Of a stretch of 64,000 nucleotides of DNA, positions 44,132-55,186 are shown piece after piece. Position numbers and translations under genes: made by a program. Source of the stretch: an uncultured delta proteobacterium (lineage in GTDB: Bacteria > Desulfobacterota > RBG-13-43-22); assembly GCA_963711835.1 (NCBI GenBank), contig CAVQFQ010000017.1, forward strand, positions 448,001-512,000, given 5' to 3'. The notes below the pieces were generated by a model, which made no database searches, was not told where the DNA came from, and saw only the letters and a program-made list of their open reading frames with translations. How positions within the stretch are numbered: the first letter of the stretch is position 1; each line of letters opens with the position of its first letter.

Positions 44132-46417
44132 ATGGAAAAAGAATTTCAGGTCGTCGGACAGCGCCTGCCCATGCATGATGCGGCCGCCAAGGCCAAAGGA
44201 ACGGCCCTATTCACGGACGATATCGTTCTTCCGGGAATGCTTCATGGAAAGATTCTAAGGAGTCCCCTACCTCATGCCCGAATCCTGGCCATCGATATCT
44301 CCCGGGCCAAGAAACTTCCCGGTGTAAAAGGCGTGGTAACCGGCCAGGATATCCCGGATCGGCAATACGGCATTGTGCCCAAGGCCAGGGATGAATACGC
44401 CCTGGCCCGGGGGAAAGTCAGATATATCGGTGATGATGTAGCCGCTGTCTGCGCCATCGATCCGGAGATTGCCGAAGAGGCCCTCGAACTGATTAAAGTG
44501 GAATACGAAGAGCTTCCGGCCGTATTTGATCCCCTGGAGGCCATCAAAGAAGATGCCCCGGTAATACATGAGGGTGTTAAAAATAATACCTCCATTTATA
44601 TCCGGAAGGAATTCGGTGATGTGGAAAAGGCCTTTGCTGAAAGCGATTACGTCTTTGAAGACTCCTTCTATTCCCAGCCGGTCAATCATGCCCCCCTGGA
44701 ACCCCACGCGGCCCTTGCCCAGTATGATCCGCTACGAGGTGAATTCACCGTCTATTCCTCTACCCAGATACCCTTCTTCCTGCGACGGAATCTCTCGGCC
44801 ACACTCAAGGTTCCGGAATCCAGTGTTCGGGTCATCAAGCCCAAGGTGGGCGGCGGGTTCGGACAAAAAATAGACATGTTCGCCAAGGATTTCTGCGCCG
44901 CCTGGTTTGCTAGGGAGACGGGCCGGCCGGTCAAGTTTGTCTATGAGCGGGAAGAACTCTTCATCGCCACCCGGCAGCGGCATCCCATGACTATAACGGT
45001 TAAGACCGGCATGAAGAAAGACGGCACCATCATGGCCCAAAAATTCAAGGCCTATGCCGACGGCGGGGCCTATAACAGCACGGCCCCGACCATGATCGCC
45101 CTTTCCTGTTATTTTCTCATGATCCCCTACCGGGTGCCCAACCTGATTTACGAAGGGCATCATGTTTACACCAACAAACCGGTGGGCGGAGCCATGCGGG
45201 GCCACGGTATCCCCCAGGCCCGTTTTGCCGTGGAACGCCAGTTGGATATGATCGCCGATCGAATTGGTATTGATCCGGTTGATCTGCGGTTGAAAAACAG
45301 CATTCATGCCGGCGAGCCGCATCCGGCCAAATTTATCATCAACTCCTGCGGCTTTTCCGACTGCGTCGTCAAGGCGGCTGAGGCCATAGGCTGGAAGGAG
45401 AAAAGAGGAAAAATGCCCAGAGGAAGAGGCGTGGGAATCGCCGGGGCCTCTTTCCCCAGCGGGGTCAGCAACATGAGTCATATCAGCTCCGGGGCGGTGG
45501 TTCAATTGGGGCAGGACGGCGCCGTCAATGTCCTTTCCGGGGCCGCCGACATCGGTCAGGGCGCTGAAACGGTCATCTCTCAGATTGTTGCGGAGGTGCT
45601 GGGCGTGCCCATGGAGGATGTCAGGATCACCGCCGCCGACACAGGCATCACTCCCCTGGATCCGGGGACTTTCGGAAGCGGCGTGACCGTCAGGGCCGGC
45701 AATGCGGCCCGTTTGGCTGCCCTGGTGGTCAGGGAGAAGATCTTCAAATTCGTGGCCGACAAACTGGAAGCCAATAGCGACGATCTGGTGGCCCGGGATA
45801 GGACCATCTTTGTCAAAGGTTCTCCGGACCGGGGGATGTCCTTGAAGGAGGCCATCAAAGGGTATCAGTATGCGGACCTGCCCATGCCCATTATGGGAAG
45901 ATCGGCCTGGTTTCCACCGGCTACCGAACCAACCACCCTCTTCAAGGAAGACGGCAATTTCGCACCCAGCTATTCCTTTATGGCCCAGGCGGCTGAAGTG
46001 GATGTTAATCTGGAGACCGGTCAGGTGAAACTTCTGAAGATGGTCACGGCCCATGACTGCGGCCGGGCCATCAACCCCATGCTGGTTGAGGGCCAATTGG
46101 AAGGTTCGGTTGTGGGCGGTATGGGACAGGCCCTCTATGAGAACGTCATTGTTGAAAAAGGGCAGGTGATGAATCCTTCTTTTCTGGATTATGGTTTCCC
46201 CACCTTTCTTGAGATGCCCGAAATAGAGGCCATCGAGGTTGAAACCGACGACCCGGTGGGGCCCTTTGGGGCCAAGGAAGCCGGCGAAGGAACCCAGTTA
46301 TCCCCGGCCCCGGCCATTGTCAATGCCATCTATGATGCCATCGGCATTGATTTCAAGGAACTGCCCGTCACACCCGAAAGGGTCCTCCAGGCCTTGGAAG
46401 AGAAAAAGAAACCTTGA
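44132..46417 (+). CDS. hcrA: Molybdopterin-binding subunit (HcrA/xanthine oxidase family)
   Basis: GGGFG, AMRGHG, DIGQG, GQLEG, GAKEAGEG. Confidence 0.8.
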   Translation: MEKEFQVVGQRLPMHDAAAKAKGTALFTDDIVLPGMLHGKILRSPLPHARILAIDISRAKKLPGVKGVVTGQDIPDRQYGIVPKARDEYALARGKVRYIGDDVAAVCAIDPEIAEEALELIKVEYEELPAVFDPLEAIKEDAPVIHEGVKNNTSIYIRKEFGDVEKAFAESDYVFEDSFYSQPVNHAPLEPHAALAQYDPLRGEFTVYSSTQIPFFLRRNLSATLKVPESSVRVIKPKVGGGFGQKIDMFAKDFCAAWFARETGRPVKFVYEREELFIATRQRHPMTITVKTGMKKDGTIMAQKFKAYADGGAYNSTAPTMIALSCYFLMIPYRVPNLIYEGHHVYTNKPVGGAMRGHGIPQARFAVERQLDMIADRIGIDPVDLRLKNSIHAGEPHPAKFIINSCGFSDCVVKAAEAIGWKEKRGKMPRGRGVGIAGASFPSGVSNMSHISSGAVVQLGQDGAVNVLSGAADIGQGAETVISQIVAEVLGVPMEDVRITAADTGITPLDPGTFGSGVTVRAGNAARLAALVVREKIFKFVADKLEANSDDLVARDRTIFVKGSPDRGMSLKEAIKGYQYADLPMPIMGRSAWFPPATEPTTLFKEDGNFAPSYSFMAQAAEVDVNLETGQVKLLKMVTAHDCGRAINPMLVEGQLEGSVVGGMGQALYENVIVEKGQVMNPSFLDYGFPTFLEMPEIEAIEVETDDPVGPFGAKEAGEGTQLSPAPAIVNAIYDAIGIDFKELPVTPERVLQALEEKKKP

Positions 46418-46468
46418 CAGGAAACCGGCAATTCCTTAAAATAAAAGTAAGGCAAAATATTCCTTACT
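46414..46468 (+). promoter_or_regulatory. sigma70 promoter and operator of the TA module
   Basis: TTGACA-17-TAAAAT overlapping the hcrA stop; palindrome AGTAAGG-N9-CCTTACT. Confidence 0.7.
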
Positions 46469-46480
46469 TAGAGGTGACGC

Positions 46481-46720
46481 ATGATCGTCGCAAAAATAAC
46501 GTCCAAAGGGCAGGTGACCATCCCCAAAAAGGTCAGGGAAAAACTTGGGGTTCAGCCCGGAGAAGGTCTGGGTTTTGAAGAAAAAGGAAACCTGATTCTT
46601 ATCAGGAAAGCGGTAACCAAATCTCCCTTTGACCGGTGGGTGGGTAAGCTGAAACATCTTAAGGGGCGACGAAGCGACGACCTGGTCAGGGATATTCGGG
46701 GTCATGATAACGGCCGTTGA
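46481..46720 (+). CDS. AbrB/MazE-family antitoxin
   Basis: AKITSKGQVTIPKKVREKLG. Confidence 0.92.
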   Translation: MIVAKITSKGQVTIPKKVREKLGVQPGEGLGFEEKGNLILIRKAVTKSPFDRWVGKLKHLKGRRSDDLVRDIRGHDNGR

Positions 46721-47199
46721 CACCAACTATTATCCTCGATGTCCTTATTCCGGATGAACCTTTCCGACCGTCCTCCAAAAACCTTTTGGACCTGCATTTA
46801 TCAAAGGGCAAGCTCATCCTTTGCGAGATCGTCTTTGCCGAACTGGCAGCTCACTTCCCATCCGAACCTGAACTCAGACTGTTTCTGACCGAAACCGGGA
46901 TGCGGCTGGAATATTCAAACGAGAAGTCGCTCTATATTGCCGGCACCAGATGGGCCAACTATGCCAAAAAGGGAAACAAAGACCGGTTTATTTGCGGCCA
47001 ATGCAACCAGGTCTTTGCTGCAGCCTGCCCGAAATGCTCGACGGCCTTCACCAAAAGGCTTCATGTCTTGGGGGATTTCCTCATAGGGGCCCATGCTCTG
47101 GTAAAGGCCGACTGCCTGCTTTCCCGTGACCTCGGGATCTATAAGACCTACTTCAGGGATCTCAAGGTAGTCAACTCGAATAATCCATCGGCCGGTTAG
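46704..47199 (+). CDS. VapC/PIN toxin with Zn-ribbon insert (1-nt frameshift near 46728)
   Basis: MITAVDTN(+1)IILDVL, EIVFAEL, CGQC..CPKC, GDFLIGAHA, LSRD. Confidence 0.8.
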
Positions 47200-47258
47200 A
47201 GTGACAGCCTTATATTTTCAGCAGCAAATTCGATGCAAAGAAAATAGAGTTGATAAAC

Positions 47259-47303
47259 AGACCTGAACCTCGCTCCGCTTTTTCTTGTACTATAATTACC
47301 AGA
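47259..47303. repeat. 45-bp direct repeat, copy 1 (copy 2 at 51675-51719)
   Basis: AGACCTGAACCTCGCTCCGCTTTTTCTTGTACTATAATTACCAGA is identical in both places and begins with the REP-like core. Confidence 0.9.
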
Positions 47304-47468
47304 TAACTAAGAGCCAAGAGCAGACCCTTTCATCGCCCTGCAAAAAAAAGATAGTTTTTTGCAATGAAGATTTTTTTCTCTTGACATGGCCTTTTAATGG
47401 GTGACTCTTTCACTTCTGTGATATCTTCAAAATACCTTCTTGCCATGCTTGCCTGTCGTCTCCTCTAC

Positions 47469-47553
47469 GTCTAACACCGTATTCAGCCGCCGACCGACCA
47501 CCCATTAGGAGAAATACTCGCTACCCACGGTCGGCTGCAATAATTGGTTGGCA
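47469..47553 (-). mobile_element. Integron attC site
   Basis: On the minus strand TGCCAAC...GTTAGAC with imperfect stem TATTGCAGCCG/CGGCTGAATA (one extrahelical base), directly after the relE stop. Confidence 0.8.
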
Positions 47554-47556
47554 GGT

Positions 47557-47892
47557 TTACAGTTTCAAATCGATAAGTCTTCTCAGAAGAATATCCTCAA
47601 CGTTCTGCCGGGAATCCAGCACAGACAGAACGTATACCTTGTTCTCCGAAACTCTATATATGATCCGCCATGGTGGAATAATCATCTCACGATACTGCGT
47701 AACCCCGTGATCCAGCAATTCCGGAACAATACGGCCTCTATCAGGGAAAACTCGAAGCCTTGACGCTCTTTCCTTAATGCTTTTGAATACCTCGTTAGCT
47801 TGATGAGGGTTATCGTCGGCGATGTACTGAACGATCGTAATAAGATCGCTCTCTGAAGTGTCCGACCATCGCACGTCGTAGCGTTTCTTCAT
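47557..47892 (-). CDS. RelE/ParE family toxin
   Basis: YDVRWS..SESDL..I..YI, FPDRGRIVPEL, YRE...WRIIYRV, LDSRQN. Confidence 0.92.
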   Translation of the reverse strand: MKKRYDVRWSDTSESDLITIVQYIADDNPHQANEVFKSIKERASRLRVFPDRGRIVPELLDHGVTQYREMIIPPWRIIYRVSENKVYVLSVLDSRQNVEDILLRRLIDLKL

Positions 47893-48170
47893 TTCATCTT
47901 TTCTTTCAGAATTGTCTCAATGTTTGCAAATACTTCTTCCTGAGACTTTGTTTTTCCGCGTCTCACGTCTTCTTCGCCTTGGGAAAGGAGCTTCAAAATC
48001 CCTATGGCGTTCCTCATGTTTTCATAGCTCTTAGGGTCCTGGAGCACGGCCCGGGGTTCTCCATTTTGGGTAATGATCACAGGCCGATGCGTTTCATTTA
48101 TTTGTTTCAACAAATCGGGAGCCTTTGATTTTAGATAAGTAATTGGCTTGATATCTTTTGAAATATTCAT
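47889..48170 (-). CDS. Phd/YefM family antitoxin
   Basis: DIKPITYLK...RPVIITQNGEPRAVL; ATGA-coupled to the toxin. Confidence 0.92.
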   Translation of the reverse strand: MNISKDIKPITYLKSKAPDLLKQINETHRPVIITQNGEPRAVLQDPKSYENMRNAIGILKLLSQGEEDVRRGKTKSQEEVFANIETILKEKMK

Positions 48171-48378
48171 GTCATCACCTCCAGTCTTTATATGGTACTA
48201 TAAAAAGACTGGTTGTCAATTCTTTTGGTGTTTCCTGCTCTCGCCAAATCGGGAAAACCGTCTTTTTTAGCCTCAAAAAACTCATTATAGGCCCATTTTA
48301 AAGGGTACAGATGATAATATTCCCTGCCAGATCAAGAAGTTGTCGAGGCCCGACCCCGTTAAGTAAGTCCTATTTATT

Positions 48379-49266
48379 TCAAACATTGGCTTTCACAGCA
48401 TGTTGAGAAATGGCGTCTACTATTTCTGCCCAAACCCCTTTTGGCATGTCATGCCCCATTCCATTAATTATAAATAATCTTGCCCCTGGTATCACCCGAG
48501 CTGTATTTTTTCCTCCTTCGACCGGTATCAGCGGATCATCAGCCCCATGAATTACAAGTGTTGGGACTTTAATAGTTGAAAGCGACGGTCTTCGATCGCC
48601 ATTGACAAGAATAGCTATGTTTTGACGAGCCATTCCCTGCGGGTAGTATGAACGATCATAGCTCTTCTCTATGAACGTACGAGCTCTCTTTTCCTCAAAT
48701 GGAAATCCTGGACTCCAAAGCCTCCGCCATATATTCATATTGTGTTCAATATATGCTTCGCGTTCCTCTGGTGCCGGCGCGATAACAGTAGCTATTGTTT
48801 CCGGTTCCCCCTGCGGAAGATCAGGATTTCCTGTGGTCGACATTATTGAAGTGAGACTCAGGACATGTTTTGGATGTCGATAGGAGATAACCTGGGCTAT
48901 CATACCGCCCATTGAAGCACCACAGATATGTGCCTTCTCAATGCCTAAAGCATTAAGTAAACCAACGGCGTCATCTGCCATATCATCGAGAGAATATGCT
49001 GATTCCACAGGCTTGCCTTCCATTAAAGCTTTGATTGCAGCCGGAAAGTCAGGAATTCCTGCTTCTTCAAATTTTGTCGAAAGACCTGCATCCCGGTTGT
49101 CAAACCGAATCACAAAGTAACCATTTTTTGCAAATAACTCGCAGAATTCGACTTCCCAAAAAATCATCTGAGCCCCATTACCTGCAACTAATAATAATGC
49201 CGGGGTAGAACTATCACCGAAAGTATCATATTCAATCTGGATTCCATTGGCCGTCACATTAGGCAT
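48379..49266 (-). CDS. Alpha/beta fold hydrolase
   Basis: RFDNRDAGLS, GASMGG nucleophile elbow, HGADDPL, GMGH; AT-rich. Confidence 0.92.
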   Translation of the reverse strand: MPNVTANGIQIEYDTFGDSSTPALLLVAGNGAQMIFWEVEFCELFAKNGYFVIRFDNRDAGLSTKFEEAGIPDFPAAIKALMEGKPVESAYSLDDMADDAVGLLNALGIEKAHICGASMGGMIAQVISYRHPKHVLSLTSIMSTTGNPDLPQGEPETIATVIAPAPEEREAYIEHNMNIWRRLWSPGFPFEEKRARTFIEKSYDRSYYPQGMARQNIAILVNGDRRPSLSTIKVPTLVIHGADDPLIPVEGGKNTARVIPGARLFIINGMGHDMPKGVWAEIVDAISQHAVKANV

Positions 49267-49454
49267 TGCTGACTCCTTTTCCTGTTAATATCGTGAATTA
49301 CTATATTTATCTTGACCCACAACATGGGCGTCATTCGGAGCCGGCTTTTTCGGCGATCGAGGTTTGGGGCCAGGTCTTGAAATATCACTTTTATTGTTTC
49401 CTCTACCTCACTATCAATCGGGCGAGAAGTAGGGCTGAACCAAGGATAACCGGT

Positions 49455-49823
49455 TTATTCGATCCTGATCTTTGCGGCCCCTTTTTCCTTCTTCAGTAAG
49501 GTAGGGTCCTCTAATAATCTTCCCACCATGTTGACCTCGCTGGCCGGGACCGGATCGGAACCGGTGCTCATGGGGGTTGGACCGAAAAATATGGCCAGGG
49601 CTTTGCCCGGAGGCCAATACCCGATATCACCGGCCTTCACCCTCCGGGTGGCCGATTCATCCAGGGGCATATTGACCGGAATCTCAAAATAGAACTCATC
49701 GCCCCATTCATTAGGCCGGGTTTCGAGGGGGAGGCTGGCGAAAACGGCCTGGGCACAAGGAGAATCGAAGAGTTCGGCGTTTAGGGTTGTCTGTCCGATG
49801 AAAATTTTAATTGGGTTCGGCAT
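49455..49823 (-). CDS. Cyclophilin-like fold protein
   Basis: WGDEFYF, GDIGYWPPGKALAIFFGPTP, PASEVN. Confidence 0.85.
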   Translation of the reverse strand: MPNPIKIFIGQTTLNAELFDSPCAQAVFASLPLETRPNEWGDEFYFEIPVNMPLDESATRRVKAGDIGYWPPGKALAIFFGPTPMSTGSDPVPASEVNMVGRLLEDPTLLKKEKGAAKIRIE

Positions 49824-49870
49824 AGTTGAAAATAAAGAAATCGTGCCTCTCTATCTAAGGTCTATCTAAG

Positions 49871-49931
49871 GCCCAACATCGGGCGTCAGTGGCGCGGCAC
49901 CGCCGCGTTCGCCTGGATGCACTGGTTAGCC
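49871..49931 (-). mobile_element. Integron attC site
   Basis: Minus strand GGCTAAC...GTTGGGC with stem GCATCCAG/CTGACGC. Confidence 0.78.
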
Positions 49932-50224
49932 ATTTGCTAAAAACCCTTTGTGAAACATGACAGTGCCTTTATAGGGCCAAGGCCATACCAATTAAGGCTG
50001 CCATCGGAAATTGCTATAGGCGAGAACGCTATATGGCCGACCACTTTTCCATTAACTTCTGCGACTAGCGAAATGGTCAGCGCATTGGCATCACGTAATG
50101 CATTTATTATGAATTGTTCCGTATGATTACTAATTGCAAGATTCTGGAAGGCTGCAATGGTAACTTTCGATATCGCTTCAATATCTGAAATTGTTTCATT
50201 CCTTATGATCATTTTAAACTCCAT
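49926..50224 (-). pseudogene. GNAT acetyltransferase gene cassette with internal deletion
   Basis: IIRNE...LTISLVAE...VGHIAFSP...WYGLGP jumps directly to the C-terminal GTVMFHKGFLANG* in another frame. Confidence 0.75.
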
Positions 50225-50263
50225 ATTCGGACAGGATATTTATTTGGTGGCTAATGGGTCATA

Positions 50264-51192
50264 GGGTCAGGTCTTGAAATATCACTTTTTATTTTTCTCT
50301 GCTTTTGCCATCACCTTACTGACAGTAGTATAATGAATTCCCAAATAGTCCGCAATTTCTTTCAGGGTATATCCTTGGCTCATATGAGCACGGCGGATGC
50401 TTATATTTCTTTGGTCTTTTGTTTTCTGTCCCCTAAAAATATTATCGAGGCTTGGCCTGCCTATATATCTCTGTGAGCGAGGAATTTCCTTTATCTGTTT
50501 TTTGTCTTCTAAAACATCCTTGAATTTTTCAACAAATTCCTCTTCTCCCAACAATACTTGATTCTGAAGCTCTTCCCATGAAGCACTCCCATGGATTCCC
50601 TCCTGTACAAACGACCGGTATCGCCTTTTGGCAATAGTTCTTCGAGAGTTGAAAAAACCCAGAATCCAGCCAGTGGTGAGGTACTCCGGCTCTTTGCCTA
50701 TTCCTGCCGTGGCCAGATAGCTGCTCCATCTCCAAGCCTCGATCTTTTTGACTATCCCGGCCCGCACAGGATTCAATACAACATATCGGCAGAGTTCAAG
50801 AAGATAGTTTTCTTTTTGGACTAAAATTGCCTTGAAACGTCCTTGAAAAATATGACCAGGTTTTTGGTGTCTTCTATTATAGCGTTGAGTATAGACACCG
50901 TTCAATTGGCGCATACCTGACGAAAGGTTGGCATCGGGTGTTTCGATCATAAGATGGTAGTGGTTATCCATGAGACAATAGGCATGACAGAGCCAGTTGT
51001 ATCGTTTGACAACGGAGCCTAAGATAGAAAGGAATATCTGCCGATCCTGATCATCTTCGAATATATCTTTACGCCCATTCCCTCGGGATGTGACATGATA
51101 GACTGCACCAGGATATTCAATTCGTAACGGTCTGGCCATAAGATAATCCTAATAAAAAATTACTTATATTCTGATATTTCAAGACCTGACCC
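50264..51192. mobile_element. RAYT/REPtron-like element with perfect 21-bp inverted ends
   Basis: GGGTCAGGTCTTGAAATATCA (50264-50284) and its exact reverse complement (51172-51192) bracket the transposase gene. Confidence 0.85.
50282..51139 (-). CDS. REP-associated tyrosine transposase (Y1 HuH, RAYT-like) with C-terminal HTH
   Basis: YHVTSRGN, AYCLMDNHYHL (HuH), FQGRFKA, YVVLNPVRAG, WSSY, TLKEIADYLGIHYTTVS. Confidence 0.9.
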   Translation of the reverse strand: MARPLRIEYPGAVYHVTSRGNGRKDIFEDDQDRQIFLSILGSVVKRYNWLCHAYCLMDNHYHLMIETPDANLSSGMRQLNGVYTQRYNRRHQKPGHIFQGRFKAILVQKENYLLELCRYVVLNPVRAGIVKKIEAWRWSSYLATAGIGKEPEYLTTGWILGFFNSRRTIAKRRYRSFVQEGIHGSASWEELQNQVLLGEEEFVEKFKDVLEDKKQIKEIPRSQRYIGRPSLDNIFRGQKTKDQRNISIRRAHMSQGYTLKEIADYLGIHYTTVSKVMAKAEKNKK

Positions 51193-51202
51193 CACTGACC
51201 CC

Positions 51203-51510
51203 TGGGACAGGCCCTCTATGAGAACGTCATTGTTGAAAAAGGGCAGGTGATGAACCCTTCTTTTCTGGATTATGGTTTCCCCACCTTTCTGGAGATGCCC
51301 GAAATAGAGGCCATCGAGGTTGAAACCGACGACCCGGTGGGGCCCTTCGGGGCCAAGGAAGCCGGCGAAGGAACCCAGTTATCCCCGGCCCCGGCGATTG
51401 TCAATGCCATCTACGATGCCATCGGCATTGATTTCAAGGAACTGCCCGTCACCCCGGAAAAGGTCCTTCAGTCTTTGGAGGAGAAAAAGAAGCAGTCCCA
51501 AGAAAGATAG
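51203..51510 (+). pseudogene. Duplicated 3' end of hcrA
   Basis: 51203-51491 is a near-identical copy of 46122-46410, with a different C-terminus (KKKQSQER*). Confidence 0.92.
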
Positions 51511-51711
51511 CCTCCCCTTTTTCTTCTCGTGAGGTTATCGTGCCTCCAACCGTTTCTTTTATCGCCTCAAAGGTACGATGGTTTGAATTGTGGCGTTTTG
51601 GCACAGCACCCAATTGCCTAAAGAACCCCAAAATTTAATCAGGCATCTAAAAACAAGTTAGAGGTCAAGAAAATAGACCTGAACCTCGCTCCGCTTTTTC
51701 TTGTACTATAA

Positions 51712-52128
51712 TTACCAGACTGAACGGCTCACCTCCTTCTTCAGCAGCGCAGCGTTTCGTTCCAGGAATTCCATCACGGACTCAACCGCTGCCATCTCAA
51801 CAAGCCCGAGTCCGTAGTGACTCGCCAAGTAGCAGAACGCAAAGGCCAGACGCGGATCTGACAACACCGCACCCTGGCTCGCGAGGTTCGCGACGTAGCT
51901 GGCCAACGCCGAGTCGGTCGCACGCTTCAGGGTCGCGCCGCGAGAAGGCAGGCTTCGAAACTTCAGGGCTACCGCGGGAGCAAGGTGAAAGAGCTCCTGC
52001 TCGTCAATGCGTTGACCGACGGCGGGGCCGAAGGGAATTGCCTCTCGAGCGTCTGCGTACGCCGCCCGGATTTCCTCCAGCCACGCTTCCGGCGTTGCTG
52101 GGAGCTCTCGTTGTTCCAGTCTCTTCAC
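51712..52128 (-). CDS. Hypothetical cassette protein
   Basis: 138-aa ORF directly after an attC; stop codon lies inside the 45-bp repeat. Confidence 0.65.
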   Translation of the reverse strand: MKRLEQRELPATPEAWLEEIRAAYADAREAIPFGPAVGQRIDEQELFHLAPAVALKFRSLPSRGATLKRATDSALASYVANLASQGAVLSDPRLAFAFCYLASHYGLGLVEMAAVESVMEFLERNAALLKKEVSRSVW

Positions 52129-52142
52129 ATCTTCCTCGTGAA

Positions 52143-52206
52143 GCCCAACGCCCCGGCTGACCCGACGGGTGCTTTTGCCCGGTCGGTGTCGAGCCGGTTG
52201 TTATGT
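52143..52206 (-). mobile_element. Integron attC site
   Basis: Minus strand ACATAAC...GTTGGGC with stem CCGGCTCGAC/GTCAGCCGG; TCACATAAC is complementary to its cassette start TTATGTGA. Confidence 0.82.
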
Positions 52207-52213
52207 GAAGCGA

Positions 52214-52624
52214 TCACTTTATACTCACAGGAGGTGCTTTTGATGAAACGTTTTCTTTTGTGGTGGCGGTCTCACCAAGTTCTTTCAGAGGTGTTGTCGC
52301 CTTTGTACTTATGCCTTTATCAATCTTGGTTTGTGGCTGGGTATGTTCTCTCTGCCACCAGCGAATATCTGGACCGTATTTTTGGATTAATCCTCCAAAT
52401 ATTGCGGATAGGGCGCTGATAATGGCAGCGATTATGACGATTCGTTTGTTTAACTTGTGTTGCTCTACCATGATTTCTCTATTTAATCGTTGCTGCTCTT
52501 TTATTAGGTGCTCCTCCCATTCCATTTGTGCAAGAAACGGAGCAGGGCTGCCATCTTTAAAATCCCTTGCTTTTGCCAGAGCAATTTTGGCTTTCTCTTC
52601 CTCTGTCATGGCTTTATCGGTCAT
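52214..52624 (-). CDS. Hypothetical single-TM cassette protein
   Basis: 136-aa ORF filling the space between two attC sites, GAGG RBS. Confidence 0.7.
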   Translation of the reverse strand: MTDKAMTEEEKAKIALAKARDFKDGSPAPFLAQMEWEEHLIKEQQRLNREIMVEQHKLNKRIVIIAAIISALSAIFGGLIQKYGPDIRWWQREHTQPQTKIDKGISTKATTPLKELGETATTKENVSSKAPPVSIK

Positions 52625-52633
52625 TTATTCCTC

Positions 52634-52689
52634 ACATAACGCGAAGTTCACCGGGAGCGTTAGCGATCCGGGGGAACGTCTTGATAGAC
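52634..52689 (-). mobile_element. Integron attC site (degenerate R'' box)
   Basis: Minus strand GTCTATC...GTTATGT with GTTCCCCCGG/CCGGTGAAC stem. Confidence 0.6.
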
Positions 52690-52698
52690 CACACACAG

Positions 52699-53130
52699 TT
52701 ATAATTCCTTTTTTTGCCACGCAGAATAAACAAAATAAAATGCGGGTACCGCTATAATGGGTATGAGTAATGCACCAAATCCTTCAGAACGAAAGAACAC
52801 ATAAGTAAACGAAACAGTCCCGATCAATATAACTAATCCAAATACTACAGCAACAGTACGCATATGCGCGTTTGCAAACAATGAAGAGCAAGTTTTTAAT
52901 GCAGCGAAAGCAGATAATCCATTCATTAGCATGCCACGAATAATTGCTGTCAGCAGACCGGGGTTGTCTGCCTCGCTAGCACCACCAAATCTCTCCGGAA
53001 TAAATATTTTACCGAAAAAAATTAATAATTTTTCAAGTACCGGTGTTACCAGATAAATCATGATCAGATAGATAGCAACACTTGCAAGTGCTGCAACAAT
53101 AGTTTGCCAGATAGAAGAAGAACGATTCAT
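52699..53130 (-). CDS. Hypothetical membrane cassette protein
   Basis: 143-aa AT-rich ORF with about 4 TM segments, followed by an attC. Confidence 0.7.
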   Translation of the reverse strand: MNRSSSIWQTIVAALASVAIYLIMIYLVTPVLEKLLIFFGKIFIPERFGGASEADNPGLLTAIIRGMLMNGLSAFAALKTCSSLFANAHMRTVAVVFGLVILIGTVSFTYVFFRSEGFGALLIPIIAVPAFYFVYSAWQKKEL

Positions 53131-53454
53131 ATTGCTACTCCAAATAATAGATTCATACGGTCTTTCGGGTTCGTCTCAACATATTGTGATTATTGGTTTT
53201 AATCCTCTGGTTTATTCACCACTGCAGTAGGCTTCCCATTGCCACACATGCAAGCCCCACCCGGAAAAAAATTTTGTCAATGTAGCATACGGTCGCTTCG
53301 CGGTACGATCCATCTTCGGCTGTCTTAACGATGTATTTCCATACTTCTTTTCTTTCTTGCTCCTCGCTGAAAGGGTATATTTATTCTCGATTTTGATCGC
53401 GAAAGCCAAGCATATCGTCCCCAATATAACAAGCAATATGCCACCATGACCCAA

Positions 53455-53568
53455 TGAAGGGGTCAGGTCTGCTCTTGGCTCTTTCTTTTTCCCCCTACGC
53501 CAACTCCATTTTAATTTCCCCCCACCTCAACTCTAGCACCTTATAATCCCAAGGTCAGCCACCTGAAA
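53455..53568. repeat. Approx. 110-bp direct repeat starting with the REP-like motif, copy 1 (copy 2 approx. 54471-54581)
   Basis: GCTCTTTCTTTTTCCCC..TACGCCA..CTCCATTT.AATTTCCCCCCACCTCA.CTCT.GCAC.TTATAATCCCAAGGTCAGCC.CCTGAAA in both copies. Confidence 0.85.
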
Positions 53569-53827
53569 GGCCACCTCCAAGGAGCCGGAAAATAAAAAAG
53601 GCCCTGCTGCTCGATTATGAGGCAGGGCCTTCACGTTCCATTCATCCTCCCGCATTTAAGGTTAGACGAGAAAAAGAAAAGGGAAATTAACCGGATAGCC
53701 AGTGAATAGCATAGAAAATTTCCCCTGTCAATACATAGCGGGTTTTGGGATTTATGGAATTTTTTCCTAAGGCTTGACAAGGCCGCCTTACTAATGTATT
53801 GTATTTTGTAAGGAGGATTTGCAACCT

Positions 53828-54070
53828 ATGCTCGTCAAGATCACCAGCAAGCGACAAGTTACCTTTCCGGCACAGGTTTTGAAGGCACTGGGAGTTCATC
53901 CCGGTGAAAGTCTCGAACTGGTGAAGGGACCGGACGGCTTTCTCCTGCGCCCCCGCCGCATTGATACTTCCCGACTGGCGCCCCTGCGAGGGAAACTTAA
54001 CCGCGGCCAGGGAAATTTCAACCTCGAAACTTTTCGAAATGAGCCCCATGACCAAACGCTTCGGGATTGA
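53828..54070 (+). CDS. AbrB/MazE-family antitoxin
   Basis: MLVKITSKRQVTFPA; upstream TTGACA and CCTTAC..GTAAGG palindrome. Confidence 0.88.
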   Translation: MLVKITSKRQVTFPAQVLKALGVHPGESLELVKGPDGFLLRPRRIDTSRLAPLRGKLNRGQGNFNLETFRNEPHDQTLRD

Positions 54071-54446
54071 CACCTCTATCCTGGTTCGTCTGGCAACCGG
54101 GGATCCTAAAGCTGGATTTGAACAGTGCATGCGAAGGCTAACTCGGTTGGTCGAGGAAGGTCAGGCCGAAATCTTCGCCTCTAATCAAGTTATTGGCGAA
54201 GCCTATATTGCCTTGCAGCACCACTATGGGGTCAGCAAATCGGACGCGCGTGCCGCCCTGACCAGTGTCCTGAGCAGCGGAATGGTGTCTCCCTTGAATG
54301 GAATATCCGTCTTCGAAGACCTCGCAGCCAGGGGCGGTTGCGGTCTTCTCGATCGATTGATTGCCGGCGATTATCGACGCGCGGAATTGGTCACTCTCAC
54401 TCTGGATCGTCGGATGGTTTCCCTCCCGGATGTTCAGGCTTTATAA
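54048..54446 (+). CDS. PIN/VapC toxin
   Basis: GIDTSILVR, VIGEAY, DRLI, TLD. Confidence 0.85.
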   Translation: MTKRFGIDTSILVRLATGDPKAGFEQCMRRLTRLVEEGQAEIFASNQVIGEAYIALQHHYGVSKSDARAALTSVLSSGMVSPLNGISVFEDLAARGGCGLLDRLIAGDYRRAELVTLTLDRRMVSLPDVQAL

Positions 54447-54630
54447 CTCTTCAGTTAGATCAATTTAATAGGGATCAAGTCCTGCTTTTAGCTCTTTCTT
54501 TTTCCCCTACGCCATACTCCATTTCAATTTCCCCCCACCTCACCTCTGGCACATTATAATCCCAAGGTCAGCCCCCTGAAATGCCGATCCCAAAAAACTT
54601 TCTTCCGGCCCTTGACTTTCATAAAATAGG

Positions 54631-54649
54631 ATTAATAATAATTATTATC
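54631..54649. promoter_or_regulatory. Fur/PerR-like box upstream of tpx-cooS
   Basis: ATTAATAATAATTATTATC matches 15/19 of the Fur consensus GATAATGATAATCATTATC; TTGACT at 54612. Confidence 0.55.
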
Positions 54650-54670
54650 AAAAAAGGGGAGGGGACAACT

Positions 54671-55186
54671 ATGGAAGAACGGACTGGTCTGGTAAGCCTG
54701 CAAGGGAATCCTCTGACATTATTAGGCCCGGAGCTTAAAGTGGGAGACCAGGCGCCGGAGTTTGAGGTCTTGGATAATAATCTGTCTCCCATCCAGTTGG
54801 CTTCATTTAAAGGAAAGATAATCATCCTGGCTTCGGTACCCTCTCTGGATACGCCGGTGTGTGACCTGGAAACCCGGCGTTTCAATACCGAAGCCGGAAA
54901 ACTGGATCCGGACATCCGGATACTGACCATCAGTATGGATTTGCCTTTTGCCCAGAAGCGCTGGTGCGGGGCAGCCGGGGTGGATAAGGTCGTTACGCTT
55001 TCCGACCACCGGACAGCTTCTTTCGGAAGCGCCTACGGCGTCCTGATCAAGGAACTGCGCCTCTTGGCCAGGGCTGTTTTTGTCTTGGACCGGGAGGGAG
55101 TCATCCGCTATATCCAGGTCCTCCCGGATCTGGCCCAGGAGCCGGATTATGACGAAGTAATCAAGGTTGTTGAAAAACTGGTCTAA
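54671..55186 (+). CDS. tpx: Thiol peroxidase
   Basis: SVPSLDTPVC, ISMDLPFAQKRWC, LLARAVFV, EPDYD. Confidence 0.95.
   Translation: MEERTGLVSLQGNPLTLLGPELKVGDQAPEFEVLDNNLSPIQLASFKGKIIILASVPSLDTPVCDLETRRFNTEAGKLDPDIRILTISMDLPFAQKRWCGAAGVDKVVTLSDHRTASFGSAYGVLIKELRLLARAVFVLDREGVIRYIQVLPDLAQEPDYDEVIKVVEKLV

Follow-up and report, generated by a model that had tools for sequence, protein, structure and literature searches.

The end of a TIRtron abuts an integron cassette at its crossover point in an integrase-less array of an uncultured delta proteobacterium

Several kinds of mobile element live in integron cassette arrays. The IS1111-attC group and the group IIC-attC introns, which employ DEDD transposases or reverse transcriptases, occupy a fixed place inside attC, with both halves of the site flanking the element. 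The locus described here is likewise a mobile element in a cassette array, but a gene tail, rather than a second attC half, lies at its other flank, and no enrichment of R boxes was seen among 167 element ends.

Elements with HUH enzymes have also been linked to cassettes. An IS200/IS605 element has been reported beside an integrase-less array (CALIN), and its authors speculated about HUH-driven mobilisation (PMC7923331). Like the element studied here, this element, ISHahl1, is a Y1/HUH element at the edge of an integrase-less array that it might, in its authors' speculation, move; unlike the present one, it has hairpin ends and a tnpB gene and sits after an intact attC, and the parts of the report that we draw on mention no joint at a crossover point (PMC7923331). 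Integrase-independent deletions between the nic site of the HUH relaxase TrwC and attC were described in 2023 (PMC10127599). Such deletions may be akin to the present case, in that an HUH cut site is joined to attC without an integrase, folded single-stranded attC having been suggested as a hot spot; they differ in the place of the attC break, which falls within the variable terminal structure, and in the enzyme, a plasmid relaxase, whereas an R box and a putative TIRYT are concerned here (PMC10127599, in the sections used).

A further related system is the TIRtron, described by Di Nocera, De Gregorio and Rocco in 2013 as a RAYT-like gene flanked by terminal inverted repeats (TIRs), the protein being called a TIRYT (PMC3733652). 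These elements share with ours an HUH/Tyr protein, non-REP TIRs fitting the motif GGGGWSAS (common to many members, though not to all) and few or no dispersed copies; unlike our locus, the passages of that paper on which we rely concern neither integron cassettes nor stutters at the ends, nor ends acting as breakpoints (PMC3733652). TIRtrons, CALINs, elements in attC sites and an IS200/IS605 element beside a CALIN are therefore all known already. In the literature covered, to which subscription journals did not belong, we found no TIRtron or RAYT end at a cassette boundary or replacing attC at the crossover, no account of TIRtron ends recurring at truncated attC sites, and none of a TIRtron stutter.

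A TIRtron with perfect inverted repeats

The locus lies in a window of 64,000 nucleotides, the whole stretch of DNA that was analysed, from an uncultured delta proteobacterium (contig CAVQFQ010000017.1 of assembly GCA_963711835.1, positions 448,001 to 512,000). The genome measures 3.9 Mb in 28 contigs and is 89% complete with 6.4% contamination. The product of a minus-strand gene (50282..51139) is 285 aa long and is a Y1/HUH tyrosine transposase resembling RAYTs; a helix-turn-helix lies at its C-terminus. The protein scored 51.7 bits against the Pfam Y1_Tnp model (cut-off 23) and 92.4 bits against NF047646, the NCBIfam equivalog model of the REP-associated tyrosine transposase or RAYT (cut-off 80), which bears out its earlier identification as a RAYT, vs. 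19.6 bits against the IS200 model (cut-off 55). Its sequence contains H60-Y61-H62 and RYVVLNP (Y119), which we take, by analogy, to be the HUH motif and the catalytic tyrosine, respectively. A PDB sequence search with the transposase gave no matches at E <= 0.01.

A perfect 21-bp inverted repeat (50264-50284 and 51172-51192, 100% complementary), starting GGGGTCAG, flanks the gene on both sides. The left repeat, GGGTCAGGTCTTGAAATATCA (50264..50284), overlaps the stop codon of the transposase gene, and the right repeat forms, together with the extra sequence just outside it, the unit 51172..51202. The right end reads GGGGTCAG and the left end, after its stutter, GGGTCAGG, in agreement with GGGGWSAS. 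Folded alone, the element ends gave -0.1 to -0.8 kcal/mol (z 0.4-0.7), no better than shuffled sequences. The 17-nt core of the TIR occurs three times in the 3.9-Mb genome, in each case within 49371-51188 of the window (3 observed vs. 0.12 expected in the window), and allowing up to 2 mismatches yielded four matches in the genome, three at the locus and one in unrelated sequence. The genome holds a single full copy of the element.

The element is thus a TIRtron, a RAYT-like gene framed by TIRs, and not a REP-flanked RAYT. An IS200/IS605 element was rejected because the IS200 model scored below its cut-off, TIRs are present and there is only one full copy. A REPtron was rejected because there is no hairpin at the ends and no dispersed REP family, the three copies of the core all being local. 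The resemblance to REPtrons lies in the score against the RAYT model and in other organisms, where the same end sequence forms REPIN-like inverted doublets; in contrast to REPtrons, this element's ends do not fold and the genome contains no dispersed family. The doublets were seen in three metagenome contigs (L217, L207 and L238), where two end repeats point towards each other, separated by 15-20 nt that contain no gene.

Relatives of the TIRYT protein were found in many phyla (101 proteins, with 80 loci kept), and by our own reading of the output, inverted repeats with GG(G)TCAGG or a close variant frame the gene at 44 of the 49 loci examined. The genome itself has about 10 matches to TIRYT paralogs, each with short inverted repeats of its own. 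A metagenome scan with the exact core matched at least 123 stretches, and the 80 loci examined among them had 80 distinct flanks. Contigs from three of the sequencing runs compared (X1, X3 and X4; see below) join both ends with other content in between (50288-50294 to 51170-51174).

A second type of end repeat, GGGGTCA(G/A)GTCTGCTCTTG(G/A)CTCTTA, is dispersed, occurring in the window at 47309-47330, 53461-53483 and 9088. About 14 of the 19 matches listed look genuine, giving about 14 places in the genome, which suggests a putative TIR family that does spread here. Two of its copies bracket the cassette region, facing outward. A looser end-core pattern was discarded, since its 282 matches fell mostly in coding sequence; it served only to point to two other types of end.

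Both ends carry tandem extra copies of their outermost bases, GGGTCA-TA-GGGTCA on the left (50256-50269) and TGACCCC-AC-TGACCCC on the right (51187-51202). The earlier note had seen in this extra TGACCC(C) a feature of the junction. The copies are indeed present at both ends, but they mark the family and not the joint: the 8-nt junction word is tandemly repeated at 9 of 56 metagenomic ends vs. 49 of 1680 random control positions, and stutters ending ...GGGGTCA lie just outside the repeat in relatives (L028, L030, L033) and in other phyla (L049, with about six copies, L070, L071 and L075). Copies of flank plus GGGGTCA were also found at loci L163, L178, L184, L195 and L219. As a trait of the whole TIRtron family, present in many phyla, the tandem TGACCC(C) is uninformative about the cassette junction. 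That the copies end in ...TCA hints at the place where the enzyme may nick, or at slippage during copying.

The cassette array and its joint to the element

To the left of the element lies an array of cassettes, read on the minus strand. The first holds a GNAT acetyltransferase pseudogene (49937..50224, minus strand), which is frameshifted and lacks about 215 nt internally, the GNAT homologs in two other genomes (G013 and G011) having that much more between two aligned blocks; the intact G013 homolog scores 47.3 bits against Acetyltransf_1. The attC of this cassette (49870..49932, minus strand) runs from R'' TGGCTAAC to R' G↓TTGGGCC, the arrow marking the crossover point, as judged from sequence, fold and a contig from run X3 (record 21). 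That contig carries the cyclophilin-like cassette and stops at 49877, which is the start of the next cassette at the crossover point. The cyclophilin-like gene (49455..49823, minus strand; PF04126, 141.5 bits) is followed by the remaining 3′ part of an attC (49315..49358, ending G↓TTGTGGG on the minus strand, limits by inspection) and an alpha/beta-hydrolase gene (48379..49266, minus strand; PF00561, 93 bits). A strict fold screen for attC gave one site in the window, a false one, and a relaxed screen of 46300-55000 gave five, two of which match sites seen by eye. Given this poor yield, the limits of the attC sites were set by inspection, by the folds of four sites and by the breaks in homology.

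Seven matches to the integron integrase model TIGR02249 were found in the genome, all of them outside the window and below the cut-off (best 152 vs. 265 bits); truncation or internal deletion has affected the two best. No intI gene passing the cut-off in this 89% complete genome, the array is a CALIN, and the integrase gene and attI that would stand beside the array in a complete integron are absent here. As in other CALINs, attC-like sites stand between the genes (here GNAT, cyclophilin-like and hydrolase), the start of the cassette is complementary to its own R'', and homologs break at the crossovers; unlike them, the first cassette is preceded by a transposon end instead of attC or attI, and one attC is 5′-truncated at another such end. 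The array contains or adjoins three toxin-antitoxin pairs (46481-47199, 47557-48170 and 53819-54446), of the types MazE/AbrB-like with a 160-aa partner matching no Pfam model, Phd/YefM with ParE, and MazE-like with a weak PIN match (22.5 bits, below the cut-off of 23.6), respectively.

At the joint itself, the + strand from 50248 to 50284 reads TGGCTAA-T-GGGTCA-TA-GGGTCAGGTCTTGAAATATCA. On the minus strand this is AGACCTGACCC-TA-TGACCC-A, followed by TTAGCCA, just as the earlier note had read it. TTAGCCA (50248..50254, minus strand) represents the first bases of the GNAT cassette and is complementary at 7 of 7 positions to TGGCTAA in the cassette's own R'' box (49925-49932; GTTAGCCA on the + strand, TGGCTAAC on the minus strand), which upholds the complementarity claimed before; the cassette has a start of the TTRRRY kind. 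Only nine nucleotides (50255..50263, TGGGTCATA) separate the cassette start at 50254 from the conserved element at 50264. They are a stutter copy of the element end and contain neither attC nor attI; no part of the attC that formerly preceded the GNAT cassette is left at the joint. Base 50255 is A on the minus strand, where the core site of attC or attI would have G, and the element's stutter follows it. The word GGACAGG in the leader of the GNAT cassette (50229-50235), 29 nt outside the left repeat, is the same core-like word as that at the right junction (51204-51210), which may be chance.

The identity of TTAGCC as a genuine cassette start can be judged from relatives. A GNAT paralog cassette on contig C12 of the same genome (L040; itself frameshifted) has its start, G↓TTAGCC, 39 nt ahead of the ATG and its end at GGC-TAA-C, where R'' overlaps the stop codon, and the G013 and G011 homologs end in the same way. 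Among the sequencing runs compared (X1-X4; at most 0.18 of the sampled words occur in any of 22 runs), X4 has a contig (record 31, about 92% identical) that matches the window over 50002-50254; beyond it, from position 50255, two X4 contigs bear no likeness to the window, and the consensus of the loose X4 ends starts with C (agreement 0.63), as in canonical GGCTAA↓C. In X1 and X3, two contigs each match the window from 50264 on only, with different flanks before it, so that 50255-50263 is a local stutter. It should be noted that the contig pieces and joints listed from X1-X4 span neither 50254-50264 nor 51202/51203, which speaks neither for nor against the two joints. TTAGCC is, in view of the paralog and homolog ends and the breaks in the X4 and X3 contigs, a genuine cassette start, in an array read on the minus strand.

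The earlier note had left room for the 7-nt match to be chance, should homologous GNAT cassettes start elsewhere or no further joints of this kind turn up. The paralog starts at the very same point and the X4 contigs break at 50254, which argues against chance, even though a second junction at the crossover point was sought and not found among the same-family loci, the metagenome loci and the 167 ends. The cassette boundary does sit on the end of a Y1 element, with no attC or attI, as claimed, but that end is a non-folding TIR and not the REP it was thought to be. The further proposal, that a circular cassette was integrated at the element end, found nothing in its favour: downstream of the joint the GNAT cassette continues into an ordinary array, the joint reads A↓TT, the intI genes are all broken, and other ends have truncated partners.

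Since the joint falls on the crossover point to the nucleotide, an integrase acting off target deserves consideration. A non-canonical site in the A/T-rich sequence flanking the element end would have served IntI as partner for the attC before the GNAT cassette, the outcome being an insertion of cassette DNA or a deletion of the intervening stretch. Rearrangements at secondary sites are documented (PMC10127599, in the parts consulted), and the broken intI genes imply that integrases were once present. We nevertheless regard this as unlikely. The base before TT is A, and for IntI1 the pairing of GTT with ATT recombined at 3.4x10^-3 of the wild type (PMC2811028, as excerpted), while the secondary sites described keep G-N-T (PMC10127599, same parts); the A↓TT found here is at odds with a G-N-T partner crossed over after G. 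Moreover, the partner site would need to coincide with the outer edge of the element, an integrase cannot have made the element's other junction, at the gene tail, which contains no GTT, and no intI in this 89% complete genome exceeds the cut-off (152 vs. 265 bits).

The right end and other ends as breakpoints

The right end of the element is joined to a piece of a molybdenum-hydroxylase gene. This piece (51203..51502, + strand) is a second, displaced copy of that gene's 3′-terminal ~100 codons and begins with TGGGACAGGCC directly at the element; the first copy (46122..46421, + strand) lies in an intact gene (44132-46417). The joint at 51202/51203 is exact and contains no GTT. The two tails are 94.6% identical to each other vs. 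81-83% to those of five relatives, and differ at 11 of 94 codons, nine of the changes being synonymous and two non-synonymous, with no indel. From this pattern of mostly synonymous differences and from the levels of identity, we infer that the tails probably represent two functional alleles brought together, rather than a duplication left to decay.

The tails bracket a block of 5,081 nt (46122-51202) comprising a gene tail, toxin-antitoxin genes, cassettes and the TIRtron. One edge of the block is the right end of the TIRtron; a sequence like the repeat core lies at the other. At the joint, the hydroxylase gene reads GGGACAGGCC, with 8 of 10 positions identical to the repeat core (GGGTCAGGTC), inverted relative to the right end. 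The toxin-antitoxin genes downstream of the first tail copy are on other contigs in relatives (e.g. G019 and G018), and after the molybdenum-hydroxylase stop codon the locus has nothing in common with the five relatives compared. A short repeat (47225..47306, with a copy at 51654-51722, 98% identical) contains a TIR-like core, GGTTCAGGTCT, on the minus strand; a 49-nt stretch of it (47255-47303 and 51671-51719, 98% identical), which includes this variant of the end core, follows each gene-tail copy at a different distance.

Tails differing by about 5%, as strains do, raise the question of an assembly artefact, in which two strain variants were joined via a common element and the cassette and gene-tail flanks never stood on one molecule. 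The genome does resemble a metagenome bin (28 contigs, 6.4% contamination). An artefact of this kind would touch only the pairing of the flanks, however, as the joint between cassette and element lies in unique sequence, and the contig is 770 kb long; we consider it very unlikely.

A second TIRtron end in the array also sits at a break. Between the cyclophilin-like gene and the 5′-truncated attC is a solo remnant of a different TIRtron variant (49359..49420, the inner limit of ~49420 set by eye), made up of an end repeat (49367-49387) and about 35 nt from the 3′ end of a transposase gene and joined to the truncated attC. X1 and X2 contain the same remnant and cyclophilin gene at 98-99% identity and diverge left of 49364 and 49359, respectively, into another type of attC. 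We had also considered that the solo end abuts an R'' box (GGCCCCAAAC); this was rejected, as X2 shows the conserved unit reaching 49359.

Further cases occur elsewhere in this lineage. Of a long palindromic attC type (~130 nt or more), three intact copies stand in a second cassette array, on C12 (G000:C12:131843, 132719 and 134395). A fourth copy, on contig C10 (G000:C10:46380-46460) is cut after GGTGTCCAA, with a related type of end 6 nt later, and a copy in X2 breaks at the same point as that on C10 (+/-1 nt), next to the window's solo-end type. These mid-attC joints of C10 and X2 resemble the TrwC-attC deletions more closely than the joint at the GNAT cassette does (PMC10127599, from the sections used). 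On contig C5 (G000:C5:298780-299080; L003/L012), the inverted repeat of a TIRYT paralog directly adjoins the beginning of the C-terminal ~75 codons of an intI gene, no other part of that gene being present. A second intI on that contig (G000:C5:91500-92400; L001) is internally deleted, with about 55 N-terminal and 130 C-terminal codons in different frames. Since the right end and other such ends abut truncated genes or attC sites, it is the element, rather than the cassette, that appears to be the active partner.

To what extent this reflects a general link between ends and attC can be gauged from counts. An R box abuts the repeat at none of 19 further ends from 17 same-family loci, and a strict R box lies within 18 nt at 2 of 167 ends in all collections vs. 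32 of 1670 controls, i.e. without enrichment. Flanks of ends fold no better than controls (means of -5.0 vs. -5.45 kcal/mol, respectively, p = 0.88), indicating no preference for hairpins. These counts of R boxes and folding energies leave no general preference of the family for attC sites or hairpins, and the joints to attC are a feature of this array-rich lineage. What the outer flanks of 168 ends do show is A/T-richness at positions -1 to -3, with no fixed sequence.

The region as a whole is a mosaic of repeats, pseudogenes and truncated sites, and a joint might have arisen in such a decaying array with no site-specific enzyme at all, by illegitimate or homologous recombination, for instance between two copies of the element, its coincidence with the crossover position being accidental. 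An exchange between element copies would yield unrelated flanks of the sort observed. Yet both sides of the joint lie on functional boundaries, the edge of the element and the crossover point, which is not expected of random breaks, and an exchange between copies only pushes back the question of how one copy met a cassette start. We therefore judge non-specific recombination to be improbable, to about the same degree as a reaction by the integrase.

Possible origin of the joint

The reading that we prefer, and hold tentatively, is that the joint was made by the element's own transposase, which would have joined the element's end to DNA at the attC that once preceded the GNAT cassette. The TIRYT would nick at the outer edge of the G-run and then join the end to a free end in single-stranded DNA. 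A nick at this place is suggested by the stutter copies, which end ...GGGGTCA in many genomes. The R-box TAA of attC would offer an A/T-rich patch in DNA that readily becomes single-stranded, suiting the A/T-rich -1 to -3 flanks. The event may have been an insertion into attC followed by loss of the site's second half, for which no trace was found, or else a deletion from the element end up to the R box.

Transposase action is preferred because it calls for a single coincidence, the position in attC, which the R-box TAA renders less improbable, because the other breakpoints fit it and because the TrwC deletions provide an analogue. What counts against it is that the joint lies exactly at the crossover of the integrase, a coincidence of about one in tens by our own estimate, and that ends at large favour neither attC, outside this lineage, nor hairpins. 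TIRYT assays have so far only been proposed (PMC3733652, in the passages used), and we found no report in the literature of a biochemical test of any TIRYT; both the nick site and the joining step are putative.

In a separate event, the molybdenum-hydroxylase gene of a strain differing by about 5% would likely have received the 5,081-nt block 46122-51202. Its right end would have been joined at the TIR-like sequence in the hydroxylase gene, leaving the old gene tail downstream. This transfer, for which the evidence is one duplication and one similarity of 8 in 10 positions, may be extended to a broader and more doubtful proposal that we put forward as speculation: TIRYTs could be integrase-independent movers and editors of cassette blocks that attach their ends to single-stranded attC, let end-like sequences stand in for true ends and carry multi-gene blocks between genomes, in the present case 5.1 kb (a gene tail, toxin-antitoxin genes, three cassettes and the TIRtron) that would restore the target gene with its own copy of the tail.

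The locus provides, at nucleotide level, joints of TIRtron ends with cassette and attC boundaries, together with a block duplication bounded by a TIRtron end. If these joints are scars of decay only, the locus is an ordinary mosaic. If the transposase makes them, there would be a second, integrase-free route for reshaping, and perhaps moving, blocks of cassettes. The locus offers defined substrates for a first biochemistry of TIRYTs, and it bears on how CALINs arise, move and decay.
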